Positions 5,635 to 60,025 of a stretch of 64,000 bases of DNA are shown in pieces. Position 1 is the first letter of the stretch; every line of letters begins with the position of its first letter. The position numbers and the translations under genes are program-made. This DNA comes from Anaerolineales bacterium. GTDB lineage: Bacteria; Chloroflexota; Anaerolineae; Anaerolineales; Villigracilaceae. The notes under the pieces are model-generated. The model had not been told where the DNA came from. It was given only the letters and a program-made list of their open reading frames with translations, and made no database searches. The stretch is taken from contig JAUXUL010000036.1 of the NCBI GenBank assembly GCA_030680795.1, positions 16,766 to 80,765 on the forward strand, in the 5' to 3' direction.

Positions 5635-6114
5635 ATGACCGAAGTCAAACAGCACGAATACGCCCTTCTCAATGAAATTGCCCAGAACTCAATGGTAACC
5701 CAGGCGAATCTATCTGACCGCCTGGGCATTGCGGTTGGCAGCGTCAATTGGTACATTAAACGATTGATCCAGCGCGGCTGGGTCAAGGTCTCTCATCTTG
5801 ACCGTACGCGCTTGAAGTATGATCTCACGCCTGATGGGATGGCAGTATTCACGCAAAGGGCTTTGCTATATGCGCGTGATTCTTTGAAAGTGTATGGAAA
5901 TCTTCGGCAGAAAGCAAAGGCACTGGTCACGGAATTACAGGAACAAGACCTTCAGCAGGTCTATCTCAATGGCGATGATGAGGCCATGGATATACTGCGT
6001 CTCACTTGTATTGAAGCGGGGATTCAAATAAGTGATATTCCAGAAGAGTGTATCCTTGAAGCCGTTGGGCAGGGGTACCAGGTGAAACGCTTGAAAGGAA
6101 AAAACCATGCCTAA
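5635..6114 (+). CDS. wHTH regulator paralog 4
   Basis: ORF 5584-6114, conserved start ATG 5635 (MTEVKQHEY). wHTH GIAVGSVNWYIKRLIQRGWVKV. Divergent C-terminal half VYLNGDDEAMDILRLTCIEAGI. 8-nt overlap with the next gene. Confidence 0.75.
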   Translation: MTEVKQHEYALLNEIAQNSMVTQANLSDRLGIAVGSVNWYIKRLIQRGWVKVSHLDRTRLKYDLTPDGMAVFTQRALLYARDSLKVYGNLRQKAKALVTELQEQDLQQVYLNGDDEAMDILRLTCIEAGIQISDIPEECILEAVGQGYQVKRLKGKNHA

Positions 6115-7054
6115 AAATTTTGCAGTCATCGGCGTTGGCGGTTATATTGCTCCGCGCCATTTACGCGCCATCCGTGATACGGGCAATCAACTCGTCGCCG
6201 CGGTAGACCCGAAGGATTCCGTCGGTCTGCTGGATCAATATTCTTTTGACGTGAAATTCTTTACCGAGATCGAACGCTTTGACCGTCACCTCGAAAAACT
6301 GCGCCGTGGACCCAAAGAGAACCGTGTGCATTATGTGACGGTCTGCTCGCCCAATTATTTACACGATGCGCATTGCCGCCTCGCATTACGCGTAGGCGCG
6401 GATGTGATCTGCGAAAAGCCATTGGTGATCAACCCCTGGAATTTTGACGCGCTCGAAGAATTGGAAGCCGAGACAAAACACCGCATCCATACCATCTTGC
6501 AGTTGCGCGTCCACCCCGAGTTGATCAAACTCCGCGAGTCTTTGCAAAATTCAAGCGGCATGCACGACGTCGAGTTGACCTACATCACCAGCCGCGGACC
6601 CTGGTATCAAGTCTCATGGAAGGGACATGAGGATAAATCAGGCGGTGTGGCTACGAATATTGGCGTACATTTCTTTGATCTTTTATTATGGTTGTTTGGT
6701 TCTGTAAATGGAATCAAGGTATATCATTCCGATGAAAGTTGCATGTCTGGCTTTATTGAGTTGGAGCATGCCCGCGTGCACTGGTTCCTCTCGGTTGACA
6801 AAAATGACCTGCCATTTTCTGCAAAGGCTGGCGGCAAAACGACCTATCGTTCAATCACAGTAGATGGCAAGGAAATTGAATTTTCAGAAGGCTTTACTGA
6901 TTTGCATACCCGTGTCTACGAAGAGACACTGGCAGGGCGTGGATTTGGTATCAAGGATGCGCGTCCATCCATTCAATTAACACATGCCATTCGCACCGCT
7001 GAAATTTCGCCGAAGGATGACATGGCTCACCCGCTGTTGAAGAACGCCAGGTGA
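6107..7054 (+). CDS. wbpB: WbpB/WlbA-type UDP-2-acetamido-2-deoxy-sugar 3-dehydrogenase (Gfo/Idh/MocA)
   Basis: 315 aa. Recalled colinearity with P. aeruginosa WbpB: NFAVIGVGGYIAPRHLRAIRDTGN, CSPNYLH, DVICEKPLV, YITSRGPWYQVSWKG, ATNIGVHFFD, TYRSITVDGKEIEFSEGFTDLHT. Confidence 0.85.
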   Translation: MPKNFAVIGVGGYIAPRHLRAIRDTGNQLVAAVDPKDSVGLLDQYSFDVKFFTEIERFDRHLEKLRRGPKENRVHYVTVCSPNYLHDAHCRLALRVGADVICEKPLVINPWNFDALEELEAETKHRIHTILQLRVHPELIKLRESLQNSSGMHDVELTYITSRGPWYQVSWKGHEDKSGGVATNIGVHFFDLLLWLFGSVNGIKVYHSDESCMSGFIELEHARVHWFLSVDKNDLPFSAKAGGKTTYRSITVDGKEIEFSEGFTDLHTRVYEETLAGRGFGIKDARPSIQLTHAIRTAEISPKDDMAHPLLKNAR

Positions 7055-7081
7055 CAGTCACTTTAAAAGTGACTGTCACCT
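7049..7081. repeat. 33-nt near-perfect palindrome (16-bp arms) overlapping the wbpB stop codon
   Basis: AGGTGACAGTCACTTT-A-AAAGTGACTGTCACCT. No U-tract follows. Confidence 0.7.
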
Positions 7082-7095
7082 GATGATGGAAATCT

Positions 7096-7674
7096 ATGCC
7101 TGATTATTTTGTTCACGAATCCAGTTATGTGGATGATGGCGCGGAGATTGGCGCCGGCACGAAGATATGGCATTTCTGCCACATCATGCCTCGCGCAAAA
7201 ATTGGCGAACGCTGTAATGTTGGTCAGAATGTACTGGTCTCTTCGGATGTGACCATTGGAAATAATGTAAAGATCCAAAACAACGTTTCGCTTTATACAG
7301 GTGTGATTGTTGAGGATGATGTTTTCCTCGGCCCCTCGATGGTATTTACTAATGTTATCAACCCGCGCAGTCATGTCAGCAGAAAAGATGAATATAAGAC
7401 TACGCTGGTTCGAAAAGGTGCCTCCATTGGGGCAAATGCAACGATTGTTTGCGGAACAACTTTGGGCAAATATTGTTTTGTCGGCGCGGGTGCGGTGGTG
7501 ACGAGAGACGTGCCAGACTACGCGCTCGTTTACGGCTCCCCTGCGCGCGTACGCGGTTGGATATGTCAGTGTGGTGAACAATTGAAATTCGAAGATGACC
7601 GCGCAGTCTGCAATGGTTGCGGTGATGCTTATCAAAAACAGGAACAAGTCGTCAGTCCAGAAAGAGGCGTTTGA
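7096..7674 (+). CDS. wbpD: WbpD/WlbB-type 3-amino-sugar N-acetyltransferase (left-handed beta-helix)
   Basis: 192 aa. [19 protein letters not shown], hexapeptide repeats, [45 protein letters not shown]. Confidence 0.85.
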
Positions 7675-8768
7675 TGATTCCATTGGTTGACCTTACAGCG
7701 CAGTATCATTCCATCAAAAAAGAAATTGACGCGGCTGTCCTGTCCACCTTGGAATCGGGTCATTTTATTCTTGGACCACAGGTCACAAAATTTGAGGAAA
7801 GTGTCGCTTCGTACCTAGGCATGGACTTTGCGGTTGGACTGGCTTCGGGGACGGATGCGCTGGTGATCGCATTGCGGGCGTTGAATGTTGGCGCGGACGA
7901 TGAAGTCATCATGCCTGCCTATACGTTTTTTGCGACGGCAGGCACGGTCATGTCTGTCGGCGCGAAACCCCTCTTTGTGGATGTTGACCCGCAGACGTAT
8001 CAAATTGACGTGAGCAAAATTAGGTCTGCAATTACGCCAAAGACGAAAGCGATCATTCCCGTGCATTTGTACGGGCATCCCGCCGAGATGAATCCGATCC
8101 TTGAGATTGCGCGTGAGCATGGTTTGAAAATCATCGAAGATAACGCGCAGGGGTTCGGCGCGGAATATCTTGGCAGGAAAACTGGTTCACTCGGCGATAT
8201 TGGATGCTTGAGTTTTTTTCCCACAAAAAATCTCGGAGCGTTTGGCGATGCGGGCATGGTTGTGACAAATGACCCCGCGCTGGCTGAACGAATGCGAATG
8301 CTGCGGACGCACGGCTGGAAGAAAAAATATTATTCTGAAGAGGTCGGCTACAACAGCCGCATTGATGCTTTGCAAGCCGCCATCCTGCAAGCCAAACTGC
8401 CATACCTAGATTCGTGGAATGAGAAACGCCGCGAACTGGCTCAGCGCTACAGCGAGAAACTTGGTCCAAATCTTGTCACCCCGATCGAACGAGAATGGGG
8501 CAGGCATGTCTATCACCTGTATATTGTCCGCTCTGCAAAACGCGAGGAATTACAGGCATTTTTGAAACAGAAGGGGATTGCTTCTGAGGTATATTATCCC
8601 ATGCCACCGCATCTTTCTGTGCCATGCAGAAAATTTGGCTACAAGGAAGGTGACTTCCCCCATGCTGAGTTGGCATCACATGAGACTTTTGCGCTTCCGC
8701 TTTACCCTGAGTTGACTTTGTCCCAGCAGGATGAGGTGATCGCGGCGGTGCATGAGTTTGTGGGTTGA
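7671..8768 (+). CDS. wbpE: DegT/DnrJ/EryC1-family PLP aminotransferase (WbpE-type)
   Basis: 365 aa. [52 protein letters not shown] overlap with wbpD. Confidence 0.8.
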
Positions 8769-8771
8769 TAA

Positions 8772-10280
8772 ATGGTTAATTTGCCAGTTTCGCCCAACCC
8801 GCAAAACCCTGATAATAAAAAGAAAACCAACTTTTCAGCAGACATATTCAAGTTGGTGTCAGGCACGGCAATTTCGCTGGCACTAGGCGTGTTGATAATG
8901 CCTTTGCTGGCGCGTTTGTATGCGCCAGCCGCTTTTGGCGTGCTGGCTCTTTTTACTTCAATTGCAGGGATCCTCGCGGTCATTATTAGTCTGCGATATG
9001 AAATTACAATCATGCTCCCTGAAAGCGATAAGGAGGCGGCCAATCTTTTGGCAGGCAGTTTGGGCGTTGCAACAGTGAACAGCCTGCTTAGTATTCCACT
9101 GGTTTGGTTTGGCGCGCCATTTATTGGGCGGTGGTTGAAATCTCCAGAACTTGTGCCTTACTTGTGGTTATTAATCCCGGTGGTGTTTTTTGGCGGCGTT
9201 GGCGCCGGTCATCCAGCTTTGAATGCCTGGGCAAGCCGTAAACGAAATTTTACCCAAATCTCCACAACACGCGTGATCGGTAGCTTGACGCTCAATGCGG
9301 CGAAGTTGATTGCTGGGTTTTCCAGTTTTAATTCTGCTGTCGGTTTGATCTATGGCACCCTGATTGGTGCAATATGTTCGCCGTTCTTTCTTGGCTGGCA
9401 GATCTGGAGGCAAGATAAAATCCCGTTTTATGAAAATATTAGCCTTTCGCAAGCTTTGGCGGGATTAAAGAAATACCGAAAGTTTTCCTTATATAACACT
9501 TTGTCTACGCTGCTCAATACGGTCTCCTGGCAGGTGCCGTCTTTCATGCTTTCCGCTTTTTTTTCCACCACTGTGGTAGGGTATTATGCGTTTGGCAGTC
9601 AGTTGCTGCGTGTGCCAATGGATTTAATCGGCAATTCGATCGGGCAGGCTTTTTATTCGCATGCGGCTATAGCCCACCGCGAAGGGACTCTGGCGGTCTT
9701 TGTTGAGAACACATTCCGCCGCCTTGTAGAGTATAGTTTTTTTCCGATTTTAATGCTGACTGTAATTGGCAAAGACTTATTCCAGGTTGTATTCGGTTCA
9801 CAGTGGGCAGAGTCCGGGGTTTATACCCAAATATTGAGCATATGGATGGTTTTCTGGTTTGTTTCATCTCCGATGAGTCAGCTATACAGCGTTCTACAGA
9901 AGAATGAACTATTTCTAGGGCTGAATGTGGTCATTCTGATTACTCGTATTGTGTCCATTTGGCTTGGGGGAGTATTGGAAAGTCCGCGCCTTGCATTGCT
10001 CTTCTTCTCTATTTCAGGCGCAGTGGTATATGGTTTTCTTGGTGCTTCAATTATTTTCTTCTCTGGCGTTCCCTGGCGCAGGATAGTACGAATTATTCTT
10101 GAAAATCTTGCCGTATCCATACTTGCTGCTGGGGCGCTTTTTCTCTTTAATCTAATTCATGCTGCAAGTTGGGTGCAATTGATCGTAGCTGTGGTATTTA
10201 TCGGAATCTATTTTGCGTATCGTCTCAAAGACAACGAACGCGTAAAACATTTTTTTGTAAAGAGAACATCCATCAACTAA
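8772..10280 (+). CDS. wzx: Wzx-type oligosaccharide flippase (MOP superfamily)
   Basis: 502 aa, polytopic (about 12-14 hydrophobic segments). Position and size are typical of polysaccharide-biosynthesis flippases. Confidence 0.7.
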   Translation: MVNLPVSPNPQNPDNKKKTNFSADIFKLVSGTAISLALGVLIMPLLARLYAPAAFGVLALFTSIAGILAVIISLRYEITIMLPESDKEAANLLAGSLGVATVNSLLSIPLVWFGAPFIGRWLKSPELVPYLWLLIPVVFFGGVGAGHPALNAWASRKRNFTQISTTRVIGSLTLNAAKLIAGFSSFNSAVGLIYGTLIGAICSPFFLGWQIWRQDKIPFYENISLSQALAGLKKYRKFSLYNTLSTLLNTVSWQVPSFMLSAFFSTTVVGYYAFGSQLLRVPMDLIGNSIGQAFYSHAAIAHREGTLAVFVENTFRRLVEYSFFPILMLTVIGKDLFQVVFGSQWAESGVYTQILSIWMVFWFVSSPMSQLYSVLQKNELFLGLNVVILITRIVSIWLGGVLESPRLALLFFSISGAVVYGFLGASIIFFSGVPWRRIVRIILENLAVSILAAGALFLFNLIHAASWVQLIVAVVFIGIYFAYRLKDNERVKHFFVKRTSIN

Positions 10281-10376
10281 TGTAAAAGATAAGGACTGCC
10301 CAAAAATAGTTTTATATTTTTGTGTTATGCAGGAAAAGCAGGAAAACCCTAAATAAATTACCCGAAGAGGTTCGCA

Positions 10377-10925
10377 GTGGAAAATAGACAAAAATCCATA
10401 ATTGATTTTTCAAAATTAAAGAAATTTGTAATAGGAATCATGCGTTTGGTTCCTGTGCCTTTGGGGTTATGCTTGTTAAATATAATTGTGCAAAGAATTT
10501 TCCAAATTAATGGGGATGTACGATGGATGGTTCATTATACATCAAGGGTCACAACCCCTAAAAAAATCCGTCTCGGAGAAAAGGTATGGCTTTCATTTGC
10601 AGTTAGCGGAAGTTGTTATATACAGGGATTTAATGGTATTTATATTGACGACTATACAATATTTGCGCCCGGCGTGAAAATAATCTCAGCCAATCATGTT
10701 TTTGGTGAGTCTAATAAATGGGATGATGAAGTCCCCATTCAGATAGGAAAACATTGTTGGTTGGGGGCAAATGCAGTGATCTTGCCGGGAGTTACTCTGG
10801 GAGATAATTGTTTGGTTGGCGCCGGGGCAGTGGTTACTAAAAGTTTTCCTGCTGGGAGCAAGATAGCAGGAGTTCCGGCTAAATTGATCGAACAACCTAC
10901 CATATGCAAAGACAATGCAATTTGA
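10377..10925 (+). CDS. Hexapeptide-repeat O-acetyltransferase (WbbJ/MAT-like) with N-terminal hydrophobic segment
   Basis: C-terminal [47 protein letters not shown]. Start uncertain (GTG 10377 or ATG 10440). Confidence 0.7.
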   Translation: MENRQKSIIDFSKLKKFVIGIMRLVPVPLGLCLLNIIVQRIFQINGDVRWMVHYTSRVTTPKKIRLGEKVWLSFAVSGSCYIQGFNGIYIDDYTIFAPGVKIISANHVFGESNKWDDEVPIQIGKHCWLGANAVILPGVTLGDNCLVGAGAVVTKSFPAGSKIAGVPAKLIEQPTICKDNAI

Positions 10926-10940
10926 AAGGATCATCTTTTT

Positions 10941-13213: not shown

Positions 13214-13217
13214 GTTG

Positions 13218-16129: not shown

Positions 16130-16146
16130 TAACTGATATTACGCAC

Positions 16147-16240: not shown

Positions 16241-16281
16241 ACCTACTGCGTAAGGTAAGTTAATAATTGGAGATACCCAAG

Positions 16282-48594: not shown

Positions 48595-48622
48595 ATTTTG
48601 GGTTGTCTATTTAGTGATGTAA

Positions 48623-50638: not shown

Positions 50639-50666
50639 TGGGGATGGGTAGCCGAAAAAATCCAAA

Positions 50667-50694
50667 ATTCACCGCCTGAATTTTGGAGTATAAT
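50667..50694 (+). promoter_or_regulatory. Operator-like dyad plus TATAAT upstream of the PAPS-synthase gene
   Basis: ATTCAC 50667-50672, CGC, CTGAAT 50676-50681, inside the 10-bp inverted repeat CCAAAATTCA/TGAATTTTGG. TATAAT 50689-50694. Confidence 0.45.
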
Positions 50695-50803
50695 TTGCGC
50701 TTGTGTTTGACAAATAATAAAACTTCGGAAGTCTCTCTACATGTTTTTTAATTGAAAGACTCCGAAAAGGCTTCCGAAGTTTACACTTTTCATGGAGTAA
50801 AAA

Positions 50804-52531: not shown

Positions 52532-52605
52532 TTTAATATTGATAAGGTATCCGTCACCTTTACCCCCAGGGAGCTCCGCGAAGATGACCGTCACCTATTT
52601 TCTCT

Positions 52606-54219: not shown

Positions 54220-54229
54220 AAATCGTACT

Positions 54230-54274
54230 GCGACATTTATGTCGCTTACCATAAAAGACTACATAAATGTCGCG
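54230..54274. repeat. Family E palindrome plus a third arm
   Basis: GCGACATTTATGTCGC 54230-54245. CATAAATGTCGCG 54262-54274. Confidence 0.6.
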
Positions 54275-54294
54275 TTACATATCAAGGAACGAAC

Positions 54295-55122
54295 ATGACC
54301 ATTCTCGATAAATTCAATTTGAAAGACAACGTTGCGGTGGTTACAGGCGGCGGTGGACAATTAGGCTTTGAATTCTGCAAGACCCTGGCCGAAGCAGGCG
54401 CGGCTCTTGTCGCCGCAGACTTGAATATGGAATTTGCAGCGAAGACAGCTGCCCGCCTGACAGACTTAGGCTTCTCTGCCATCGCTTTTCCGCTTGATGT
54501 GACCCGCCTCGAATCAACCCGTGAACTGGTCGCTGAAACCGTCAAGCAATTCGGCCGCCTCGACATTCTCGTCAATTCCGCCGCCCTCGATCCAAAATTT
54601 GACCCCGATGCCGCCTCCAAGGGTATCGCCCCCGGCGCCTTCGAAGACTATCCGCTTGACCAGTGGAACGCGGCCTTGAACGTCAACCTGACAGGCATGT
54701 TCCTTGTTACGCAGGCTTGTGTTAAACAAATGATCGCGCAAGGCAAAAAAGGCAGTATTATCAATATCTGCTCCACGTATGGGCTGAATGGGCCTGACCA
54801 AAGAATTTATATCAAAGATGGGGTGCGAGTGGCGTATAAACCTGTCTATTACACAGTGACCAAAGCCGGCGTGCTGGGTTTTACCAAGTACCTCGCCGCA
54901 TACTATGCCGGGACCGAGATCCGCGTGAATGCACTCACCCCCGGCGGCGTGTTCAACGATCATGAAGATTATTTCGTAAAAAATTATTCCGCCAAAACCA
55001 TTCTCGGACGCATGGCCAAGAAGGACGAAATGAACGGCGCCCTATTATTCCTCGCATCTGAAGCCTCCTCATATATGACAGGCAACAACGTCATCGTGGA
55101 TGGCGGCTGGACATCATGGTAA
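54295..55122 (+). CDS. Short-chain dehydrogenase/reductase (classical SDR)
   Basis: VAVVTGGGGQLG and YTVTKAG (YxxxK). Confidence 0.8.
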   Translation: MTILDKFNLKDNVAVVTGGGGQLGFEFCKTLAEAGAALVAADLNMEFAAKTAARLTDLGFSAIAFPLDVTRLESTRELVAETVKQFGRLDILVNSAALDPKFDPDAASKGIAPGAFEDYPLDQWNAALNVNLTGMFLVTQACVKQMIAQGKKGSIINICSTYGLNGPDQRIYIKDGVRVAYKPVYYTVTKAGVLGFTKYLAAYYAGTEIRVNALTPGGVFNDHEDYFVKNYSAKTILGRMAKKDEMNGALLFLASEASSYMTGNNVIVDGGWTSW

Positions 55123-55131
55123 TTACGGTCA

Positions 55132-55190
55132 GGGCACAGCGGGATGGTCAATCGTCAAAATCCTTGAACTATTCGCTGTGCCCCTACAAT
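55132..55190 (+). promoter_or_regulatory. 10-bp-stem hairpin followed by TACAAT, 8 nt before the start codon
   Basis: GGGCACAGCG (55132-55141) / CGCTGTGCCC (55174-55183). TACAAT 55185-55190. ATG 55199. Confidence 0.45.
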
Positions 55191-55198
55191 AAACAATA

Positions 55199-56419
55199 AT
55201 GACCGAAATCCTCGCTCTCATCCCCGCACGCGGCGGCTCGAAAGGAATTCCGCGCAAGAATATTCGATCCTTTGCAGGTTTTCCTTTGATCGCGTGGAGT
55301 ATTGCCGCGGCTAAACAATCGGATTTGGTCACGCGTGTCATCGTCTCCACAGATGATGAAGAGATCGCCTCAGTTGCCCGCGAGTGGGGGGCTGAGACTC
55401 CCTTCCTGCGTCCCACTGAACTCGCGAAGGATAAAACCACCGACCTGCCAGTCTTTGAACATGCGCTCAAATGGCTTGAAGGCGTGGAAGGCTATCGCCC
55501 GGATATTCTCGTGCAATTGCGCCCCACATCGCCGATCCGCCCGAAAACCATGGTGGATGATTCCATCCGTATCCTGCTGGATCATAAAGATGCAGATTGT
55601 GTGCGTGGCGTTGTGCCTGCCGCGCAAAATCCATTTAAGATGTGGCGGTTTGATGGAGAAAATAAACCGTTGAATCCATTGCTTGAAGTGGATGGAATTC
55701 CCGAACCGTATAATGCTCCGCGCCAAATGTTGCCTCCTGTCTACTGGCAAACAGGTCACATTGATGCGATCAGCATATCAACGATTTTGCAGAAGAAATC
55801 ATTGACGGGCGATGTCATCTATCCATTATTGATTGATCCGAAATATACTGTGGATATTGATACGCTTGTAGATTGGGCCAAGTATGAAGCGCTTGTATAT
55901 GGCGGCTTGAACATGGTCACACCTGGCAGGACTCATCGTTCCATGCCTGAACACATAAAATTGATCATCTGCGATTTCGACGGAGTGGTGACGGACAATC
56001 TCGTGCTGACGGATGAAAATGGGAAAGAGACCGTCTCCGCCTCGCGCAGCGACAGTATGCACATTAATAAATTGCGTGAAATGGGCATTGAGACCATGAT
56101 TCTGTCCTCCGAGCCGAACCCTGTGGTTAAGGCGCGTGCGAAAAAAATGGGGGTGGAGGCAATTCACAATGTGGGCTTGCAGGACAAAGGTCGCGCGATG
56201 CGGGAAATCCTCGAGCAGAAAAATATCAAGGCGGAGAATGTCATCTATATTGGCAATGATTTGAACGATCTTCCATGTTTTGAGATCGCGGGTTGGTCTG
56301 TGGCGGTTGCGGATGCATATCCCGAAGTGATCCGCGCGGCGGATCATGTGTTGACGAAGAGCGGTGGACATGGCGCGGTCCGCGAACTTTGCGAAATAAT
56401 TTTATCGCGCATGAAATAA
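55199..56419 (+). CDS. Fusion: CMP-N-acylneuraminate synthetase (NeuA-type) plus HAD-IIIA (KdsC/YrbI-type) sugar-acid phosphate phosphatase
   Basis: N-terminal IPARGGSKGIPRKN...VQLRPTSPIR. C-terminal LIICDFDGVVTDN...GNDLNDLPCF...GGHGAVRE. Confidence 0.8.
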   Translation: MTEILALIPARGGSKGIPRKNIRSFAGFPLIAWSIAAAKQSDLVTRVIVSTDDEEIASVAREWGAETPFLRPTELAKDKTTDLPVFEHALKWLEGVEGYRPDILVQLRPTSPIRPKTMVDDSIRILLDHKDADCVRGVVPAAQNPFKMWRFDGENKPLNPLLEVDGIPEPYNAPRQMLPPVYWQTGHIDAISISTILQKKSLTGDVIYPLLIDPKYTVDIDTLVDWAKYEALVYGGLNMVTPGRTHRSMPEHIKLIICDFDGVVTDNLVLTDENGKETVSASRSDSMHINKLREMGIETMILSSEPNPVVKARAKKMGVEAIHNVGLQDKGRAMREILEQKNIKAENVIYIGNDLNDLPCFEIAGWSVAVADAYPEVIRAADHVLTKSGGHGAVRELCEIILSRMK

Positions 56420-56437
56420 AATTACGCATTACGTATC

Positions 56438-56455
56438 ACGTATTACGTAATACGT
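56438..56455. repeat. 18-bp perfect palindrome in the neuA-neuB spacer
   Basis: ACGTATTACGTAATACGT. Confidence 0.7.
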
Positions 56456-56473
56456 AAAACTTGAGGAGATACT

Positions 56474-57355
56474 ATGGATCGTGAAATTAAATTTGGTAAT
56501 CGAATGATGGGGGATGGTCATCCTGCCTATATCATCGCGGAAGTGGGCATCAACCATAATGGCGACCTCGACAACGCAAAGAAAATTATTGCTGCCGCCG
56601 CTCACGCGGGCGCGGATGCGGTCAAGTTCCAGAAGCGCACCCCGGAAGTGTCCACGCCGCCTGAGCAACAAAAGCAAATGCGTGAGACGCCCTGGGGTTA
56701 CATCACGTATTTGGATTATCGTCATAAGGTTGAATTCAACGAAGAGCAATATCGTGAGATTGACCGCTATTGCAAGGAAAAGAAAATTGACTGGATGGTC
56801 TCCGTGTGGGACGAGCCTTCGGTTGATTTCATGGAGAAGTTCGATATTCCTGCTTATAAAGTTCCCTCTGCTTCATTAACCGATCATAATCTTTTGAAAT
56901 ATGTTCGCAAGACGGGCAGGCCTGTTATTATTTCAACGGGCATGTCCACTATGGAACAGATCCATAAAGGCGTGAATGCTGTCGGTGAAGATAATCTTGT
57001 CATCATGCACTGCACCAGCACCTATCCATGCGAGCCTGAAGAATTGAATCTCAAGATGATCGAAACACTCCGCAAGGAATTCCCCAATAACCCCATTGGA
57101 TATTCGGGTCACGAAGTTGGGCTTGTGCCTTCTGCGGTTGCCATTGCCCTGGGCGCTACTTCGATTGAACGTCATATCACATTGGATCGCGCCATGTGGG
57201 GCAGTGACCAGGCTGCCTCTGTCGAACCTGGCGGTTTTGAGAGACTTGTGAAGTACATCCGTGTGACAGAGTCCGCGCTCGGTGATGGCATGAAGAAAGT
57301 TTACGAATCCGAAAAGGGTTCGATGAAGAAACTTCGCCGCGTAACTAACGATTAA
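56474..57355 (+). CDS. NeuB-family synthase lacking the C-terminal SAF domain
   Basis: 293 aa. YIIAEVGINHNGDLDNAKKIIAAAAHAGADAVKFQ, GYSGHE, ERHITLD. Ends shortly after the TIM-barrel part. Confidence 0.8.
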   Translation: MDREIKFGNRMMGDGHPAYIIAEVGINHNGDLDNAKKIIAAAAHAGADAVKFQKRTPEVSTPPEQQKQMRETPWGYITYLDYRHKVEFNEEQYREIDRYCKEKKIDWMVSVWDEPSVDFMEKFDIPAYKVPSASLTDHNLLKYVRKTGRPVIISTGMSTMEQIHKGVNAVGEDNLVIMHCTSTYPCEPEELNLKMIETLRKEFPNNPIGYSGHEVGLVPSAVAIALGATSIERHITLDRAMWGSDQAASVEPGGFERLVKYIRVTESALGDGMKKVYESEKGSMKKLRRVTND

Positions 57356-57406
57356 GATTTTACCAATTACTATATCAAGTAAAAGGTAATCGGTAATTGT
57401 ATTTCA

Positions 57407-58261
57407 ATGAGATTGATCCAACAACTTCGTCGTATTCTCCGCCCTGCAGGCAAAACCGCTCAAGCCATTTTGCGATGGAAGCGGTTTTCTTTTAATGATG
57501 CGCCGCCCATCTTTGGCAACTCCAAACCGAAGAGCGGATCGCATTTGCTGTTGCAAATTCTCAATGGCTTTACACAGATCATGCCGTATCGTTACGTAGA
57601 TGCTGATCCGATCCGGACGATAAAGAAAGACGGCGGACGACGGACGACGGACGATGTTCTGATGGATTTGCGTGCTGTGCCAGAAGGGGTAATTGGCTGG
57701 GGATATTTGGAAGCGACCAAAGAGAACGCCTCTTTCTTAACCGAGGCTGGGCGCGTCAACTATTTCATTTATCGTGACCCGAGGGACATGCTCGTCTCAC
57801 AAGTGTTCTTCGCGACCGATATGCACGAAGAGCATGGGATGCACGCCTACTATAATTCCCTGTCTGATTTCGGCGCGAGATTGAATGTTGCCATCTCAGG
57901 CATTGACCAGGACGGCATGAAAATGGTCAGTGTGAAGCAGAGGTATGAAGGCGTCTTCCAGTGGCTGGAACAAAAGAATGTGATGTGCCTGCGCTTTGAG
58001 GATTTGATCAATAACCGTGATGTGACTCTCAACGCCATGCTCGATGAAGTGGAAAAGACAGGCTACAAGATCCCAACTCCGCGCGGGAAAGCATTGTCCA
58101 TTTTGGTGGATGCGATCCAGCCGAAGAAGAGTCACACCTTCCGCTCGGGAAAGACAGGTAGCTGGCGTCAGCATTTCACCGAGGAACACAAGCAGTTATT
58201 CAAGGATATGGCGGGAAATTTGCTGGTGAAGCTGGGGTATGAGAAGGATAATAGTTGGTAA
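57407..58261 (+). CDS. Sulfotransferase (PAPS-dependent)
   Basis: 5'-PSB-like GNSKPKSGSHLL. 3'-PB-like IYRDPRDMLVS. Confidence 0.65.
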   Translation: MRLIQQLRRILRPAGKTAQAILRWKRFSFNDAPPIFGNSKPKSGSHLLLQILNGFTQIMPYRYVDADPIRTIKKDGGRRTTDDVLMDLRAVPEGVIGWGYLEATKENASFLTEAGRVNYFIYRDPRDMLVSQVFFATDMHEEHGMHAYYNSLSDFGARLNVAISGIDQDGMKMVSVKQRYEGVFQWLEQKNVMCLRFEDLINNRDVTLNAMLDEVEKTGYKIPTPRGKALSILVDAIQPKKSHTFRSGKTGSWRQHFTEEHKQLFKDMAGNLLVKLGYEKDNSW

Positions 58262-58321
58262 ATTGGGAAACGGTAGATTGGTGATTATGCCAATATGCTG
58301 CGCCCAGGCTACCAATAACTA

Positions 58322-60025
58322 ATGGCCATGAAAGATTTTTTCACCCAACGCATCAAACGCGGACTTGTCCGCAGGCTCAATAATCTAAAGATCACGGCGA
58401 TGGCGAAGCGTGTGGCTCGTCAGGAGCCGCAACCTTCGGGCGCGCCTGTCCTCTTTTTCAAAGCGTCCACAGGGATTGATGATCTCTCGTGGAACAGCGG
58501 ATTTCATCTGCTGGCATCGTGGGCGTTTCGCTTGCTGGGAATCCCTGTTATTTATTTTGCATGTAACTCTGGCATGAGTCATTGTGTGCTTGGGACGAAT
58601 CGCGATCATGTGCAGAAAAAGCCTCCGTGTAAGTCATGTGTGTATCAATCGAAGACGTTATACACGGGTACAAATCCACATTGGTTTACTTTTGAGCGTG
58701 ATAAAGAACTTGAAAAAACTCTGGAAAATCTTAATGTCGGAGAATTATCCAAATTTCAATGGAAATTAATAAACTATGATGTCATTGCGAGAAGCCGCGA
58801 AGCGGCGACGAAGCAATCTCCTCGTGAGTCGGAGATTGCTTCGTCGCAAAGTGCGCTCCTCGCAATGACATTGCCTTTGGGGGCGTTGTGTCTGCCTGGA
58901 CTGAGATGGGTCCTGAGAGTTCACCATCTGAAAGACGATGAAGCGACGCGTTATCTTTTCAGGGAATATATTTTATCGGCGTGGAATGTCGCGCAAAAAT
59001 TTGAAGCGCTACTCGATCAGACTCAGCCGCGGGCTGTTCTGGTTTTCAATGGACAGTTCTTCCCCGAAGCGACCGCGCGTTACATGGCGTTGAAGCGCGG
59101 CATTCGTGTGATCACGCATGAGGTGGGCTTGCAGCCTGCGACGGCGTACTTTACCGCAGGCGAAGCGACGGCCTACCCGATTGCGATCCCTGAGACGTTC
59201 GAGATGAACGCCGAACAAAATGCAAAACTGGATGCGTATCTTGCGAAGCGCTTTCAAGGGGACTTCACGATGGCGGGCATCAAGTTTTGGGCGGACATGC
59301 AGAGACTCGATGAATCGTTTTTGAAGAAAGCCGCGGGCTTCAAACAGATCGTGCCTGTGTTTACGAATGTGATTTTCGATACCAGCCAACCGCACGCCAA
59401 CACGGTCTTTGAAGATATGTTCGATTGGCTGGATTTGGTGTTGGAGGAAATTCGCTCACACCCTGAAACCTTGTTCGTGATCCGCGCGCACCCCGATGAA
59501 ACCCGAGTACGCAAAGCCAGCCGCGAGACGGTGGCGGGCTGGGTTGAAGCGCGCCGTGTAACGGACTTGCCGAATGTGGTTTTCGTATCGCCACAGGAAA
59601 CGCTCAGTTCGTATGAGTTGATCCTGAAGTCGAAGTTCGTGATGGTTTATAACTCGACCATCGGCTTGGAGGCTGCGATCATGGGCGCTGCGGTGTTGTG
59701 CGCGGGCAAGGCGAGATTTACACAATACCCGACTGTGTTCTTCCCGCAGACAGTGGATGAGGTAAGAGGAAAGATGAAAGAATTTTTAGCGGCTGATGCG
59801 ATTGTTGTTCCGCTTGAATTCAAACGCAATGCGCGCAGGTTCTTGTATTATCAGTTGTTCAGAACATCATTGCCGTTTGGGGAATTTCTTGAGCCATCTG
59901 TCCGCACTACGCAGACGAGATTGAAGTCGTTTGGGTTGGAAGAGGTGGTGAGTTCGGAGTCGGTGAAGGTAATTATGGAGGGAGTGTTGGAGGGTGGAGA
60001 TTTTTTGTTGAAAGCGAATCAGTGA
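58322..60025 (+). CDS. KpsC/KpsS-like capsule-biosynthesis (Capsule_synth-type) GT-B protein, paralog 2, carrying an in-frame repeat insertion
   Basis: 567 aa. FVIRAHPDE and VYNSTIGLEAAIMGAAVLCAG. Colinear by eye with the 28110 protein. Confidence 0.6.
   Translation: MAMKDFFTQRIKRGLVRRLNNLKITAMAKRVARQEPQPSGAPVLFFKASTGIDDLSWNSGFHLLASWAFRLLGIPVIYFACNSGMSHCVLGTNRDHVQKKPPCKSCVYQSKTLYTGTNPHWFTFERDKELEKTLENLNVGELSKFQWKLINYDVIARSREAATKQSPRESEIASSQSALLAMTLPLGALCLPGLRWVLRVHHLKDDEATRYLFREYILSAWNVAQKFEALLDQTQPRAVLVFNGQFFPEATARYMALKRGIRVITHEVGLQPATAYFTAGEATAYPIAIPETFEMNAEQNAKLDAYLAKRFQGDFTMAGIKFWADMQRLDESFLKKAAGFKQIVPVFTNVIFDTSQPHANTVFEDMFDWLDLVLEEIRSHPETLFVIRAHPDETRVRKASRETVAGWVEARRVTDLPNVVFVSPQETLSSYELILKSKFVMVYNSTIGLEAAIMGAAVLCAGKARFTQYPTVFFPQTVDEVRGKMKEFLAADAIVVPLEFKRNARRFLYYQLFRTSLPFGEFLEPSVRTTQTRLKSFGLEEVVSSESVKVIMEGVLEGGDFLLKANQ
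58781..58869. repeat. Palindromic element family A copy inside the CDS, read in frame
   Basis: GTCATTGCGAGAAGC...GACGAAGCAATCTCC...GGAGATTGCTTCGTCGC...CTCGCAATGAC, translated as VIARSREAATKQSPRESEIASSQSALLAMT. Confidence 0.8.

Follow-up and report, generated by a model that had tools for sequence, protein, structure and literature searches.

A conserved gene block for a predicted methylated, sulfated surface glycan with sialic-acid-like sugars in uncultured filamentous Chloroflexota

Introduction

In ABC-transporter-dependent pathways of surface-polymer synthesis neither Wzy nor Wzz is required; how long the polymer grows is determined by a terminator acting with the Wzt carbohydrate-binding domain, and priming transferases, wecA and tagO being examples, are commonly encoded outside such clusters. 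Here we describe a block of about 55 kb within a 64 000-nucleotide stretch of DNA (the window), which is a real supercluster for a cell-surface sugar polymer in uncultured filamentous Chloroflexota of the order Anaerolineales. Near-identical gene order of the block is kept among dozens of Anaerolineales species, and its predicted product is a methylated, sulfated surface glycan with sialic-acid-like sugars. The ABC-transporter-dependent pathway type is already known; the supercluster is undescribed so far, and our literature search found no described cluster with such a gene combination, in keeping with the original prediction, which could match it to no described system.

Results and discussion

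Gene content and layout

About 60 ORFs of the window were annotated by Pfam and NCBIfam scans, and the region was partitioned by comparison with > 100 related genomes (Table 1). The sequence comparisons identify the source as an Anaerolineales bacterium (Chloroflexota) of Villigracilaceae type, near Candidatus Villigracilis; its Wzt is 82–93% identical to those of Anaerolineales and Ca. Villigracilis MAGs, and the best solved relative of this protein is full-length Aquifex WzmWzt (8dku, E 5.5e-66). Three kinds of DNA make up the region: a lineage-specific Wzx cassette, a conserved backbone and small insertions. Within the backbone, a GT4, an orphan GT-C-like membrane protein, methyltransferases and PMT-type GT-Cs precede an array of about 37 kb (23211–60025), whose approximately 35 same-strand genes are separated by gaps of ≤ 165 bp. 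The array opens with a MarR-like regulator and contains Wzm/Wzt, a KpsC/KpsS-like transferase, a PseB-started and a Kdn-like nonulosonic-acid (NulO) route, a PAPS synthase and two sulfotransferases.

The original prediction treated 6107–60025 as one locus. This stands as a glycan region, but the region extends further, with WecB and regulator cassettes at 38–5061 and a GT2–PMT pair past the 3′ end, and it is interrupted by non-glycan insertions at 20986–23036 and 40633–42029. Most of the predicted inventory was recovered: a Wzx flippase beside a Wzm/Wzt exporter, a fucose-synthase-like enzyme (albeit under cutoff), two NulO pathways, each with a NeuB and a cytidylyltransferase, PAPS synthesis with two sulfotransferases, and a GFO/hexapeptide/DegT trio compatible with the predicted 2,3-diamino-sugar route. 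At least six methyltransferase domains had been claimed, whereas we found five, one of them under threshold; eight of the approximately 10 cytoplasmic glycosyltransferase-like genes are clear, the rest amounting to one further candidate; and all five large polytopic membrane proteins are present, two being PMT enzymes by sequence, two GT-C-like by predicted fold only and one, at 48623–50638, unassigned.

Table 1. Features of the window, with the family evidence where a score was recorded.
Feature	Position	Strand	Evidence or remark
Upstream scar zone	38–5061	+	repeat families D1 and D3; Pfam
HTH gene	38–580	+	
Truncated Wzm′ fragment	612–1013	+	
HicB/HicA	1086–1551	+	Pfam
HTH gene	1702–2181	+	
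Truncated Wzm′ fragment	2430–2759	+	
Antitoxin and MazF	2838–3460	+	Pfam
HTH gene, truncated copy	3715–3990	+	
WecB, non-hydrolysing UDP-GlcNAc 2-epimerase	3991–5061	+	TIGR00236 309 bits, cutoff 210
Fourth promoter cassette with MarR/HTH_24 regulator HTH_c	5574–6114	+	first in Wzx cassette
Lineage-specific Wzx cassette	5584–12122	+	no close relatives elsewhere
GFO/IDH/MocA oxidoreductase	6107–7054	+	Pfam
Hexapeptide N-acetyltransferase	7096–7674	+	Pfam
DegT aminotransferase	7671–8768	+	Pfam
Wzx-type MOP flippase	8772–10280	+	PF13440 85.5 bits; ~10 TM segments
Second hexapeptide acyltransferase	10377–10925	+	GC3 0.33
GT4	10941–12122	+	last gene of Wzx cassette
Conserved backbone	12125–60025		
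Conserved GT4	12125–13213	+	partner of Mem692
Mem692, orphan polytopic membrane protein	13215–15293	+	weakly GT-C-like; C-terminal soluble domain
Weak methyltransferase-like protein	15272–16129	+	PF13489 E 3e-4, under cutoff
PMT-family GT-C	16267–17925	+	PF02366 53 bits
Methyltransferase	17992–18735	−	divergent unit 17992–20854; Pfam
Methyltransferase	18739–19422	−	divergent unit; Pfam
Methyltransferase–GT2 fusion	19415–20854	−	divergent unit; Pfam
Insertion: secreted Thr/Pro-rich HExxH protein	20986–22275	+	low GC3
Insertion: secreted 229-aa protein	22347–23036	+	low GC3
HTH_d, MarR_EPS-like regulator	23211–23699	+	first gene of array; TIGR04176 61.8 bits, cutoff 88
GalE/dehydratase-like extended SDR	23699–24709	+	
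GDP-L-fucose-synthase-like extended SDR	24722–25798	+	294 bits, under 500-bit cutoff
Wzm permease	25863–26708	+	PF01061
Wzt ATPase, C-terminal carbohydrate-binding domain	26785–28074	+	PF00005, PF14524 (Wzt_C)
KpsC/KpsS-like (Capsule_synth) putative ulosonic-acid transferase	28110–29750	+	PF05159 32.2 bits, cutoff 20
SAM methyltransferase	29841–30659	+	conserved 3′ of KpsC-like gene
PseB	30717–31727	+	TIGR03589 495 bits, cutoff 408
RmlD-like 4-reductase	31824–32753	+	
NeuB1, NeuB+SAF synthase	32768–33919	+	under both NeuB and PseI cutoffs
23S_rRNA_IVP four-helix-bundle gene	33932–34378	+	place differs among relatives
GT4	34404–35522	+	
AAC(3)-like N-acetyltransferase	35485–36270	+	
DUF4910/M28-like protein	36344–37669	+	
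KdsB-like cytidylyltransferase	37715–38560	+	
Conserved gene	38565–39581	+	no assigned family
GT2	39545–40558	+	
Insertion: GIY-YIG nuclease	40633–41046	+	GC3 0.41
Insertion: HEPN-like protein	41190–42029	+	GC3 0.33
TagB/TagF-like (Glyphos_transf) and BFO_1060-like transferase	42083–43546	+	
Lipoprotein, Pro/Thr-rich linker	43648–44238	+	
Small EamA-like putative lipid-linked-sugar flippase	44248–44696	+	4 TM
Sulfotransferase 1, soluble	44715–45743	+	
Mem571, accessory GT-C by predicted fold	45823–47538	+	GC 0.427
Second GFO/IDH/MocA oxidoreductase	47557–48594	+	
Mem671, orphan membrane protein	48623–50638	+	extracytoplasmic Cys-rich C-terminal domain
Bifunctional ATP sulfurylase/APS kinase (PAPS synthase)	50804–52531	+	NF004040 821.6 bits, cutoff 669
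Second PMT-family GT-C	52606–54219	+	PF02366 29.9 bits
SDR, second NulO route	54295–55122	+	
Cytidylyltransferase–HAD phosphatase fusion	55199–56419	+	
NeuB2	56474–57355	+	no SAF domain
Sulfotransferase 2	57407–58261	+	
Second KpsC/KpsS-like transferase	58322–60025	+	last gene of array; PF05159 26.6 bits
GT2	63128–64000	−	truncated by window edge (308 aa in L083)

The conserved backbone

The order HTH–SDR–Fcl–Wzm–Wzt–KpsC-like–MT–PseB–RmlD–NeuB recurs in 22 to 30 of 32 related loci, the gaps falling mostly at contig ends; HTH_d is at the equivalent position in 26 of the 32. Further along, the gene order at 34404–40558 is the same in relatives, with the cytidylyltransferase, the unassigned gene and GT2 together in 40 of 57 loci with upstream sequence. 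The second half also has a recurrent order in species representatives (NeuB1...cytidylyltransferase–unknown–GT2–TagB-like–flippase–sulfotransferase–GFO–(Mem671)–PAPS synthase–PMT–SDR–cytidylyltransferase/HAD–NeuB2–sulfotransferase).

The SDR pair at 23699–25798 is a putative 6-deoxyhexose route. PseB, the RmlD-like reductase and NeuB1 form the first NulO route, for which a recognizable aminotransferase and UDP-sugar hydrolase were not found, and the second, at 54295–57355, is of the Kdn/9-phosphate type. The family profile of the first KpsC-like transferase matches KpsC structures at E 3.6e-4, and the HP motif aligns; the protein itself has a weak BFO_1060 match. Its best 120 homologues are 81–92% identical, and the second KpsC-like transferase has the HP motif too (alignment A5). 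Across 80 species representatives the TagB-like transferase is 83–93% identical. The score of the PAPS synthase exceeds the equivalog cutoff, and neither a TM segment nor a signal peptide was found in either sulfotransferase.

Mem692 has no Pfam match even at E 5. Of its 1873 homologues the best 120 are 55–88% identical, and all named ones among these are from Anaerolineales/Chloroflexi; loop residues E178 and D184 are invariant. Its AF2 model (pLDDT 81, pTM 0.83) finds AftA, AglB and ArnT as best PDB folds, weakly (E ≥ 0.017, TM ∼0.3), which makes it weakly GT-C-like. Mem571, likewise without a Pfam match and missing from L087 and L088, gave an AF2 model of pLDDT 93, whose top 11 PDB matches are all GT-C or GT-C-like (ArnT, ALG9, PimE, PIG-M-type, PIGU, ALG12, ALG3, STT3; prob 0.72–1.0, E 0.045–0.5), and these fold matches point to a GT-C. 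Both assignments are to be read at Foldseek E-values of 0.02–0.5 and TM-scores of 0.3–0.4. Mem671, with 875 homologues, invariant D39 and D40 after TM1 and no sequence match in Pfam or PDB, may be a GT-C enzyme.

The PMT gene at 16267–17925 is conserved in six relatives (L003, L006, L012, L014, L030, L085), and the weak methyltransferase-like gene adjoins Mem692 in L014 and L030 too. The methyltransferase–GT2 fusion is 69–82% identical in about 10 relatives; its GT2 half is similar to enzymes that make polyprenyl-phosphate sugars (AglJ, ArnC, DPM1-like), with NCBIfam scores of 95.6 bits for AglJ and 40.8 bits for ArnC, both under cutoff. The putative lipid-linked-sugar flippase gene has a frameshift at ∼44538 in the window, and its orthologues in relatives are EamA-like. 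The insertion at 20986–23036 (GC3 0.37–0.42) has no same-site homologue in any relative and is followed on its 3′ side by a 12-bp hairpin at 23116–23143. The 23S_rRNA_IVP gene is probably a passenger.

The Wzx cassette and the upstream zone

The trio at 6107–8768 is a putative 3-amino- or 2,3-diacetamido-sugar route, every NCBIfam match being under its equivalog cutoff. No close relative of Wzx was found among GTDB species representatives. In L086, L091 and L092 other cassettes lie upstream of the conserved GT4–Mem692 pair, whose GT4 is 70–71% identical to that directly 5′ of the Mem692 orthologue in these loci. Because the Wzx cassette is lineage-specific and relatives carry other cassettes in its place, we conclude from these comparisons that it is a separate, swappable, variable add-on module. 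It would make a lipid-linked oligosaccharide that is passed to the conserved GT4 and Mem692.

Three of four promoter–HTH cassettes lie in the upstream scar zone, whose paralogues share 75–90% mutual identity; the promoter of the fourth reads TTGACA-17-TGnGAGAAT (5584–5612). Each module is headed by a MarR_EPS-like regulator gene of its own.

The seemingly missing parts

In agreement with the absences originally noted, Pfam detected no PF00953/PF02397 phosphoglycosyltransferase, Wzy/Wzy_C, Wzz or outer-membrane exporter in the window, and tblastn with E. coli WecA, WcaJ, WzzE and WbbH gave no match there; as positive controls, WecA and WcaJ did match loci of other phyla. Primer, Wzy and Wzz were found in no Anaerolineales locus examined. 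These absences have ordinary reasons and are not anomalies. Wzy and Wzz are dispensable for a polymer that would be exported by an ABC transporter. An outer-membrane exporter is not expected because BAM, LPS and a true outer membrane are all considered missing from Chloroflexota (PMC13319060). As no relative examined has a priming transferase in the locus, this enzyme is probably encoded elsewhere.

One pathway or two

The original prediction left a choice between several glycans and one hybrid pathway. On balance we are inclined to regard the backbone as a single co-inherited pathway of the ABC-transporter type in which the GT-C steps are extracytoplasmic, because the genes for the ABC exporter, both NulO routes, sulfation and the GT-C enzymes lie collinearly on one strand and are syntenic across many species; the Wzx cassette falls outside this reading as a swappable add-on. 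The backbone could instead specify two separate products rather than one polymer. There are two KpsC-like genes and two NulO routes, and the structured intergenic regions at 23116–23143 and 50661–50781 could be internal terminators or promoters. Sulfation genes are present in 29 of 55 loci having ≥ 9 kb of downstream sequence; about half of those related loci whose sequence reaches far enough downstream do not carry this half, and the two halves are therefore able to exist apart. Against two products, both halves occur in the window's order in 21 of the 43 species representatives for which sequence on both sides was available. The Wzt core and the sulfation half share a contig in five genomes (JAEURJ01, L091/L005/L094; JAXLVS01, L085/L109; JACPVF01, L004/L110; JASGIA01, L086/L115; JACRBI01, L087/L107), ties that were built from overlapping or adjacent loci, and in JAEURJ01, JAXLVS01 and JASGIA01 that contig also carries a Mem692 orthologue. 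The proposed comparison with similar loci thus found the backbone, though not the Wzx cassette, conserved.

In the single-pathway reading, a priming enzyme from outside the locus would start the chain on a lipid carrier, and cytoplasmic GT4, GT2 and TagB-like enzymes would extend it with 6-deoxyhexose, a PseB-derived 9-deoxy NulO and a Kdn-like NulO made via a 9-phosphate, units for which genes are present and the chemistry is presumed. Sulfation, by the soluble sulfotransferases using PAPS from the locus's own synthase, and O-methylation would both precede export, since the cytoplasm is where PAPS, SAM and CMP-sugars occur and the sulfotransferases have no signal peptides. A non-reducing-end cap would then stop the chain and be read by the Wzt carbohydrate-binding domain, and Wzm/Wzt would export the lipid-linked polymer; this step is modelled on E. 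coli O9a and Klebsiella O12, and candidate caps are the product of the Wzt-adjoining KpsC/KpsS-like transferase and/or a methyl group. Outside the membrane, PMT-type and orphan GT-Cs would attach side residues or join the glycan to its acceptor, presumably with polyprenyl-phosphate sugars as donors, which the AglJ/ArnC-like GT2 would make and the small EamA-like protein would flip. The backbone glycan is a candidate source of the sulfated, sialylated polymers in sludge.

Beyond the array, L087 has a DinB-family gene 3′ of the second KpsC-like transferase. In L083, the GT2 that the window edge truncates is followed by a 510-aa PMT GT-C, and the pair resembles ArnC/ArnT.

Gene content and absent functions

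We translated about 60 non-overlapping open reading frames of the window and scanned them against Pfam and NCBIfam. The original prediction had described one locus that joins two export routes to rare-sugar, sulfation and methylation genes, and its gene list was essentially correct (see Table). Its counts needed some adjustment, as five methyltransferase domains, one of them sub-threshold, were found where six or more had been claimed, and eight rather than about ten cytoplasmic glycosyltransferase-like genes were clear. All five large polytopic membrane proteins are present, and a sequence match to the PMT (GT-C) type was obtained for only two of them. The locus encodes two NeuB synthases, each accompanied by its own cytidylyltransferase. 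MAGs labelled Anaerolineales, Anaerolinea or Candidatus Villigracilis have proteins with 82-93% identity to its Wzt, which places the window in Chloroflexota, Anaerolineae, Anaerolineales. Its PAPS synthase is identical in GCA_030690595.1 and in a Logan assembly of SRR13727517. A faint HTH_HVO_0163 match hinted at an archaeal origin, which we rejected because all close relatives are Chloroflexota.

Table. Features of the locus and its flanks in order of position (bits are model scores; cutoffs are those of the models)
Feature	Position	Evidence or remarks
Promoter and MarR/HTH_24 regulator cassette, four direct copies	52-407, 1652-2008, 3665-4021, 5574-5929	TTGACA-17-TGnGAGAAT
Truncated Wzm fragments	612-1013, 2430-2759	
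HicB/HicA pair	1086-1551	
93-aa ORF and MazF/PemK	2838-3460	
Wzx cassette	5584-12122	lineage-specific
GFO, hexapeptide and DegT trio (predicted sugar route)	6107-8768	
Wzx-type MOP flippase	8772-10280	PF13440, 85.5 bits; PF01943, 41.9 bits
Conserved backbone	12125-60025	
GT4	12125-13213	
Mem692	13215-15293	orphan polytopic membrane protein
First PMT-family gene	16267-17925	PF02366, 53.1 bits, cutoff 22.7
Insertion of two secreted low-GC3 proteins	20986-23036	
Thr/Pro-rich secreted protein	20986-22275	
Hairpin after the insertion	23116-23143	12-bp stem
Core	23211-43546	MarR_EPS-like regulator, two SDRs, Wzm, Wzt, KpsC-like, methyltransferase, PseB, RmlD-like, NeuB, GT4, AAC(3)-like, DUF4910, cytidylyltransferase, conserved unknown, GT2, TagB-like
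GDP-fucose-synthase-like SDR (predicted sugar route)	24722-25798	
Wzm, ABC-2 permease	25863-26708	PF01061, 70.5 bits, cutoff 26.9
Wzt ATPase with C-terminal carbohydrate-binding domain	26785-28074	PF00005, 80.2 bits; PF14524, 35.2 bits, cutoff 30.4
First KpsC-like transferase (546 aa)	28110-29750	PF05159, 32.2 bits, cutoff 20
Methyltransferase	29841-30659	
23S_rRNA_IVP gene	33932-34378	four-helix bundle
GIY-YIG nuclease and HEPN-like protein	40633-42029	GC3 0.41, 0.33
TagB-like gene	42083-43546	
Second half	43648-60025	lipoprotein, small EamA-like membrane protein, sulfotransferase, GFO, Mem671, PAPS synthase, PMT, SDR, cytidylyltransferase-HAD, NeuB2, sulfotransferase, second KpsC-like
Lipoprotein	43648-44238	lipobox LAAC
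Small EamA-like 4-TM gene	44248-44696	frameshifted near 44538
Mem571	45823-47538	orphan polytopic membrane protein; GC 0.427
Mem671	48623-50638	orphan polytopic membrane protein
Longest gap in the array (165 bp)	50639-50803	11-bp-stem hairpin, 50661-50687; imperfect inverted repeat, about 50724-50781
Second PMT-family gene	52606-54219	PF02366, 29.9 bits, cutoff 22.7
Near-perfect palindrome (36 nt)	56422-56457	TACGTAA-like units
Second KpsC-like transferase (567 aa)	58322-60025	PF05159, 26.6 bits, cutoff 20
PIN and 85-aa HTH protein	62292-62958	
GT2 (308 aa) and PMT-family GT-C (510 aa)	63128-64000 (-)	continued in L083 2488-4948

An initiating transferase, a polymerase, a chain-length regulator and an outer-membrane exporter had all been reported missing, and this was borne out. 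Within the window, Pfam gave no PF00953 or PF02397 match, no Wzy or Wzy_C, no Wzz and no outer-membrane exporter, and the annotated neighbourhoods of relatives are likewise free of PF00953 and PF02397 primers. E. coli WecA, WcaJ, WzzE and WbbH used as tblastn queries matched neither the window nor the Anaerolineales loci, whereas WecA and WcaJ, serving as a positive control, did match loci of other phyla in the same database. A WbaP-type gene elsewhere in the same genomes was sought with the WbaP homolog of another Chloroflexota lineage; in this search, which reaches close relatives only, it matched that other lineage alone. Failed matches do not prove that a Wzy is absent, given the high diversity of Wzy proteins. 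The window has neither a periplasm-spanning KpsD/KpsE exporter nor a KpsT that lacks the binding domain, its ATPase carrying Wzt_C, and no RNA family reached its Rfam gathering score there. In ABC-transporter glycan clusters the primer is commonly encoded elsewhere, as are wecA and tagO, and to our knowledge Wzy and Wzz play no part in ABC-transporter-dependent pathways. Chloroflexota are regarded as having no BAM, no LPS synthesis and no true outer membrane (PMC13319060), and it is therefore expected that an outer-membrane exporter is missing; the nature of their outer envelope layers is still open (PMC13319060).

A conserved backbone and an exchangeable Wzx cassette

Gene order was compared by running all proteins of the window in tblastn searches of 32 related Wzt loci, of a second set of 80 loci anchored on the TagB-like gene, and of six annotated neighbourhoods reached through homologs. 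The Wzx cassette has no close relative in species-representative genomes, and in three loci (L086, L091 and L092) its position is occupied by other sets of sugar-synthesis and glycosyltransferase genes, that of L086 carrying its own Wzx and sulfotransferase. Conservation begins with the next gene, a GT4. Three genomes show the corresponding context, and in each of them a GT4 with 70-71% identity to this one lies immediately upstream of the Mem692 ortholog. Mem692, a weak methyltransferase, the first PMT gene and a divergent methyltransferase/methyltransferase-GT2 unit recur in L014, L030, L085 and L092.

Single genes of the core are present in 22-30 of the 32 loci, the gaps falling mostly at contig ends. 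The gene order of the second half is kept in L087 (59-94% identity), in L088 and in many of the 80 TagB-anchored loci; the sulfotransferase, GFO and PAPS synthase genes occur together in 29 of 55 loci that have at least 9 kb of downstream sequence, and both halves are found in 21 of the 43 with both flanks. The Wzt core and the second half lie on one contig in five assemblies, as overlapping or adjacent loci, and in three of these (JAEURJ01, JAXLVS01 and JASGIA01) the contig also bears a Mem692 ortholog. Mem571 (GC 0.427) and the GIY-YIG/HEPN pair, with its low GC3, are accessory insertions.

Two predicted nonulosonic acid routes and probable sulfation before export

The first nonulosonic acid route opens with a PseB that scores above its equivalog cutoff (TIGR03589, 495.3 bits; cutoff 407.75). 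The gene that follows encodes an RmlD-like reductase rather than an aminotransferase, and the sole DegT gene, in the variable cassette, reaches 268 bits against a PseC-type cutoff of 423.5. The first synthase, NeuB1, and its cytidylyltransferase both fall below the Pse/Neu equivalog cutoffs, NeuB1 reaching 243 bits against a PseI cutoff of 340, and neither PseG nor PseH was found in the window. We therefore rejected the canonical route to pseudaminic acid (PseB, C, H, G, I and F), of which PseB alone was recovered, because an RmlD-like protein replaces the aminotransferase and the synthase and cytidylyltransferase are below cutoff. The product is therefore probably not Pse5Ac7Ac; it would more likely be a nonulosonic acid of the 9-deoxy, 7-hydroxy type, predicted to be 5-acetamido-3,5,9-trideoxy instead of 5,7-diacetamido.

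In the second route, NeuB2 (PF03102, 271 bits) is without a SAF domain, and its cytidylyltransferase is fused to a phosphatase of the KdsC / Kdn-9-P type. The HAD half of the fusion passes TIGR01670 (113.3 bits; cutoff 107) and reaches only 96.5 on the Kdn-9-P phosphatase model (cutoff 180), and the cytidylyltransferase half is PseF-like at 153.8 bits, below the cutoff of 205.7. The SAF-less synthase and the cytidylyltransferase-phosphatase fusion together point to a Kdn-like route, that is, one that would proceed through a 9-phosphate intermediate, as for Kdn.

Sulfation is represented by a bifunctional PAPS synthase above its equivalog cutoff (NF004040, 821.6 bits; cutoff 669) and by two sulfotransferases (PF13469, 85.5 bits; PF00685, 63.5 and 37.9 bits). 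None of these proteins has a signal peptide or a transmembrane segment, which indicates that sulfation takes place before export.

The exporter and its neighbouring transferases

The best solved relative of Wzt is full-length Aquifex WzmWzt (8dku, E 5.5e-66), aligned over residues 57-378. Directly beside Wzt lie the first KpsC-like gene and a methyltransferase gene, which are candidates for the cap enzymes and are placed in the same way in relatives. The profile of the KpsC-like family aligns to KpsC (6mgd, E 3.6e-4) with the HP motif included, H374-P375 being invariant in the family alignment, although the similarity is limited to about 50-100 residues. Both KpsC-like proteins and the TagB-like protein also match the BFO_1060 family weakly, at 30-48 bits against a cutoff of 200; this family includes the Tannerella pseudaminic/legionaminic acid transferases, which have a TagB-like domain and the HP motif (PMC5420450). 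Because of the PF05159 matches, the KpsC-aligned HP motif and these weak BFO_1060 matches, it is plausible that the KpsC-like and TagB-like proteins are nonulosonic acid transferases.

Orphan membrane proteins with features of GT-C enzymes

The two PMT genes carry the PMT/ArnT-type signature PF02366. Profile-profile and PDB sequence searches tied none of the three orphan proteins Mem692, Mem571 and Mem671 to a solved protein, and remote homology of their families to the PMT genes was rejected (hhalign probabilities at most 6%). Mem692 has no Pfam match even at E 5; it has 1873 homologs, of which the best 120 are 55-88% identical, and the named members among these 120 are all Anaerolineales or Chloroflexi. 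Its model (pLDDT 81, pTM 0.83) weakly matches AftA (E 0.017, prob 0.98), AglB (prob 0.90) and ArnT (prob 0.23), with TM values of ~0.3. For Mem571, with 1910 representative homologs, the model is better (pLDDT 93) and PDB matches 1-11 are all GT-C or GT-C-like folds, including ArnT, ALG9, PimE, a GPI mannosyltransferase, PIGU, ALG12, ALG3 and STT3, with modest scores (prob 0.72-1.0, E 0.045-0.5, TM 0.26-0.48). The modelled Mem571 is thus predicted to have a GT-C fold and not to be a Wzy. Mem671 (875 homologs) gave no sequence match; its invariant D39-D40 pair after TM1 and its Cys-rich C-terminal domain would, as we infer, fit a GT-C topology.

We had considered Mem571 or Mem692 as the missing Wzy. 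This was rejected because their predicted folds resemble GT-C enzymes of the ArnT, PimE, ALG and AftA types, and not SEDS or WaaL-like proteins.

Assembly, export and alternative readings of the locus

An ABC-transporter-dependent pathway is the best-supported reading of the backbone. In such a pathway the glycan would be assembled in the cytoplasm on a lipid carrier, where methylation and sulfation would also occur, and a nonulosonic acid and/or a methyl group at the non-reducing end would form a cap that is read by the binding domain of Wzt. The capped glycan would then be exported by Wzm/Wzt and would undergo extracytoplasmic GT-C steps, whose donors would be polyprenyl-phosphate sugars made by the AglJ/ArnC-like GT2 and flipped by the small EamA-like protein. 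The Wzx cassette would supply a separate, variable lipid-linked oligosaccharide, probably for the conserved GT4-Mem692 pair.

The genes could instead specify several independent glycoconjugates, their adjacency reflecting a shared envelope island rather than one pathway. One product would be an oligosaccharide flipped by Wzx, and another a methylated polymer that leaves through the ABC exporter and has the first nonulosonic acid as its cap; the third would be a separate sulfated glycoconjugate with a Kdn-like sugar, either a glycolipid or a protein O-glycan. Each nonulosonic acid route does have its own cytidylyltransferase and its own KpsC-like transferase, and the Wzx cassette is clearly modular; moreover, 26 of 55 loci with downstream sequence are without the sulfotransferase (Sulfo342), GFO (GFO2) and PAPS synthase genes after the TagB-like gene, L088 has an aminotransferase and another sulfotransferase in place of the second KpsC-like gene, and hairpins and AT-rich structured DNA (50661-50781) precede the PAPS synthase gene. 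We nevertheless regard such a division as somewhat unlikely. A product sulfated in the cytoplasm must still be exported, and apart from Wzm/Wzt the locus has no complete ABC exporter, the sole alternative route being the Wzx of the lineage-specific cassette. In addition, the second half contains no further exporter or regulator gene, the array runs on a single strand with short gaps throughout, and dozens of species retain the junction order GT2, TagB-like, flippase, sulfotransferase, with identities of 70-90%. It is also unlikely, and a little more so, that the backbone serves chiefly protein O-glycosylation of an S-layer, sheath or lipoprotein, with a Wzm/Wzt-exported lipid-linked glycan moved to Thr/Pro-rich proteins by a GT-C enzyme, in the manner of Geobacillus S-layer glycans and PMT-type O-mannosylation. 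Enzymes of the PMT type move single sugars and not polymers, an S-layer gene and an O-antigen-ligase-type oligosaccharyltransferase (Wzy_C) are absent, and the acceptor cannot be read from sequence. The presence of PMT-family GT-C genes would accord with O-glycosylation, as would the lipoprotein with a Pro/Thr linker that is embedded in the array and kept in 36 of 80 loci, and the weak match of the three KpsC/TagB-like genes to the Tannerella S-layer nonulosonic acid transferase family (PMC5420450); the Thr/Pro-rich secreted protein would do so too, but it is a window-specific insertion.

The start of synthesis allows a further reading. In group 2 capsules, KpsS and KpsC place Kdo on lyso-phosphatidylglycerol, and the KpsC/KpsS-like enzymes might similarly add ulosonic acid residues to a glycerophospholipid, with no polyprenyl primer, which would account for the lack of a phosphoglycosyltransferase linked to the locus. 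We find no primer gene in any related neighbourhood examined; two PF05159 proteins exceed the gathering cutoff, the family profile aligns to KpsC structures across the HP motif, one KpsC-like gene directly follows the exporter genes in nearly every relative, and CMP-ulosonic acid synthesis is encoded in the same array. Such a capsule-like start is nonetheless improbable, since the ATPase has a carbohydrate-binding domain of the Wzt type, which is typical of cap-reading O-polysaccharide exporters and not of KpsT, since the sugars are NeuB products rather than Kdo, and since the KpsC similarity covers only some 50-100 residues at E 3.6e-4; the acceptor, too, is not inferable from sequence. Equally doubtful is a more far-reaching proposal, that the backbone specifies a previously unrecognised class of envelope polymer forming the unexplained outer layer or layers of filamentous Anaerolineales. 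This would require jointly that an ABC-exported sulfated, methylated, nonulosonic acid-rich glycan is joined outside the cell to a Wzx-delivered oligosaccharide or to the wall, that new GT-C families (Mem692 and Mem671) do the joining as ligases or oligosaccharyltransferases, and that initiation is non-canonical, either KpsS-like on a phospholipid or AglJ-like on a polyprenyl monophosphate. Non-canonical initiation, if true, would account for the lack of a linked phosphoglycosyltransferase in every related locus examined.

Relationship to known systems

The ABC-dependent pathway follows the logic of capped O-polysaccharide export (E. coli O9a, Klebsiella O12), to which it adds extracytoplasmic GT-C decoration of the mycobacterial or Gram-positive style. 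The capped systems compared were E. coli O8/O9a, with WbdD and the Wzt carbohydrate-binding domain (CBD), Aquifex WzmWzt, and Klebsiella O12 / Raoultella terrigena, with the WbbB beta-Kdo cap and Wzt-CBD. The locus shares with them a Wzm and a CBD-bearing Wzt (best PDB match 8dku), the lack of Wzy and Wzz, methyltransferases and an ulosonic acid transferase-like gene next to the exporter, and probably a primer gene outside the cluster, as with wecA. It differs in that its host has no outer membrane, LPS or WaaL, that its candidate cap enzyme is KpsC/KpsS-like (PF05159) and not GT99, that its sugars are nonulosonic acids of the NeuB type, and that the array itself includes PAPS-dependent sulfation and several GT-C genes.

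With mycobacterial arabinogalactan/lipoarabinomannan and the decoration of Gram-positive wall polymers (GtrB/CsbB-type GT2, small flippase and GT-C), the locus would have in common a cytoplasmic lipid-linked stage and a Wzm/Wzt-type exporter followed by extracytoplasmic GT-C enzymes acting on polyprenyl-phosphate sugars. The top folds matched by the orphan proteins are AftA, PimE and ArnT, and the window contains a polyprenyl-P-sugar-synthase-like GT2 and a small EamA-like flippase. Nevertheless, there is no sequence-level kinship to the Emb, Aft or Pim families, and the range of sugars is wholly different. The E. coli group 2 capsule (KpsMT, KpsC, KpsS, KpsU/F, KpsDE) similarly has an ABC-2 exporter, two PF05159 transferases and CMP-ulosonic acid synthesis in the locus; in the window, however, the ATPase bears Wzt_C, neither KpsD nor KpsE is present, the synthases belong to the NeuB and not to the KdsA type, and the similarity to KpsC is short.

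Sulfotransferases inside a surface-polysaccharide locus, with PAPS as donor, are also a feature of sulfated exopolysaccharide clusters such as the xss genes for synechan in Synechocystis, which form a Wzx/Wzy-type cluster, and those for sulfated LPS/K-antigen in Sinorhizobium. We know of no sulfated-polysaccharide system that joins sulfation to two nonulosonic acid routes, a CBD-bearing Wzt and GT-C enzymes. The general O-glycosylation system of Tannerella forsythia ends in a pseudaminic or legionaminic acid derivative added by the Tanf_01245 / BFO_1060 transferases (PMC5420450). There, as in the window, TagB-like, HP-motif transferase candidates adjoin a CMP-nonulosonic acid locus and a methyltransferase, although the window proteins score far below the cutoff of the BFO_1060 model and the export route and host envelope differ. 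The suggestion that the combination matches no described system also holds, in that the literature searched describes no host lacking an outer membrane that joins this logic of export and decoration to two nonulosonic acid routes, built-in PAPS synthesis and sulfotransferases.

Ca. Villigracilis and similar Anaerolineales are abundant filaments of activated sludge (PMC10746286), and anammox and methanogenic reactors harbour other Chloroflexi in abundance, which are believed to provide a scaffold for flocs and granules (PMC9942424). Groundwater and lake MAGs are also among the relatives identified in this comparison. Papers on Chloroflexi MAGs mention exopolysaccharide genes only generically (PMC9942424). 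The extracellular polymers of sludge are rich in Pse/Leg-type and Kdn nonulosonic acids and contain sulfated glycoconjugates, whose producers and sulfotransferases are still to be named (PMC10483923). With two nonulosonic acid routes, PAPS synthesis and two sulfotransferases tied to a single exporter, the conserved locus is a concrete genetic candidate for such polymers and for envelope layers. Its three large families of orphan membrane proteins, with 1873, 875 and 1910 homologs under the thresholds applied, are worth characterising.

Apparent recombination scars, insertions and boundaries

The four direct copies of the promoter and regulator cassette are 70-85% identical in DNA over the promoter and the 5' part of the regulator gene. 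Copies 1 and 2 lead into the truncated Wzm fragments, which are identical to each other over 55 residues and share 65-74% identity with Wzm from another exporter lineage of Chloroflexota (closest intact: L076, L063 and L082), and HicAB and MazF-type toxin-antitoxin genes come after them. Copy 3 is a truncated regulator abutting wecB, and copy 4 heads the Wzx cassette. The stretch 38-5061 looks like a series of recombination scars left by glycan-cassette exchange at a shared regulator head. In L091 (JAEURJ010000023.1), a second intact Wzm/Wzt pair (15076-17687; Wzt of 592 aa) lies just downstream of the Mem692 ortholog, about 40 kb from the core exporter genes, and the truncated fragments in the window likewise point to a second exporter that has since been lost, although the intact proteins closest to them belong to other lineages. 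Two toxin-antitoxin-like pairs, HicB/HicA and the 93-aa ORF with MazF/PemK, flank the glycan region upstream, and a third, PIN with an 85-aa HTH protein, flanks it downstream.

Promoter and terminator scan counts were at chance level in the window, and only the repeated regulator cassette, a promoter-like site at 20908 and three long hairpins stood out. The two secreted low-GC3 proteins lie between the divergent methyltransferase-GT2 gene and the regulator, where every relative lacks them; the Thr/Pro-rich one has a C-terminal HExxH metalloprotease motif. The GIY-YIG and HEPN-like genes separate GT2 from the TagB-like gene, a GIY-YIG gene lies beside the TagB-like gene, on either side, in seven of 80 loci, and L088 has SLATT_5 and a reverse transcriptase (3117-5009) at the same junction; this could be a hotspot of mobile or defence genes within a conserved operon. 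The 23S_rRNA_IVP gene embedded in the array behaves like a mobile passenger; in relatives, the family is found between the two SDR genes (L003, L086) or after NeuB (L010, L085).

The EamA-like frameshift could be an assembly error or mark a pseudogene, intact orthologs of 143-159 aa being present in L087 and L088. The neighbouring lipoprotein, with its Pro/Thr-rich linker and small Cys-containing domain, may accept a glycan or take part in glycan handling. The longest gap, ahead of the PAPS synthase gene, holds a TTGACA hexamer besides its two inverted repeats and may be an internal regulatory site, and the palindrome occupies a 54-bp gap between the cytidylyltransferase-HAD and NeuB2 genes. 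Glycan genes run past the 3' end of the window, where the GT2 and PMT-family pair, which is ArnC/ArnT-like, comes after an FAD oxidoreductase, a TetR gene and the PIN module.
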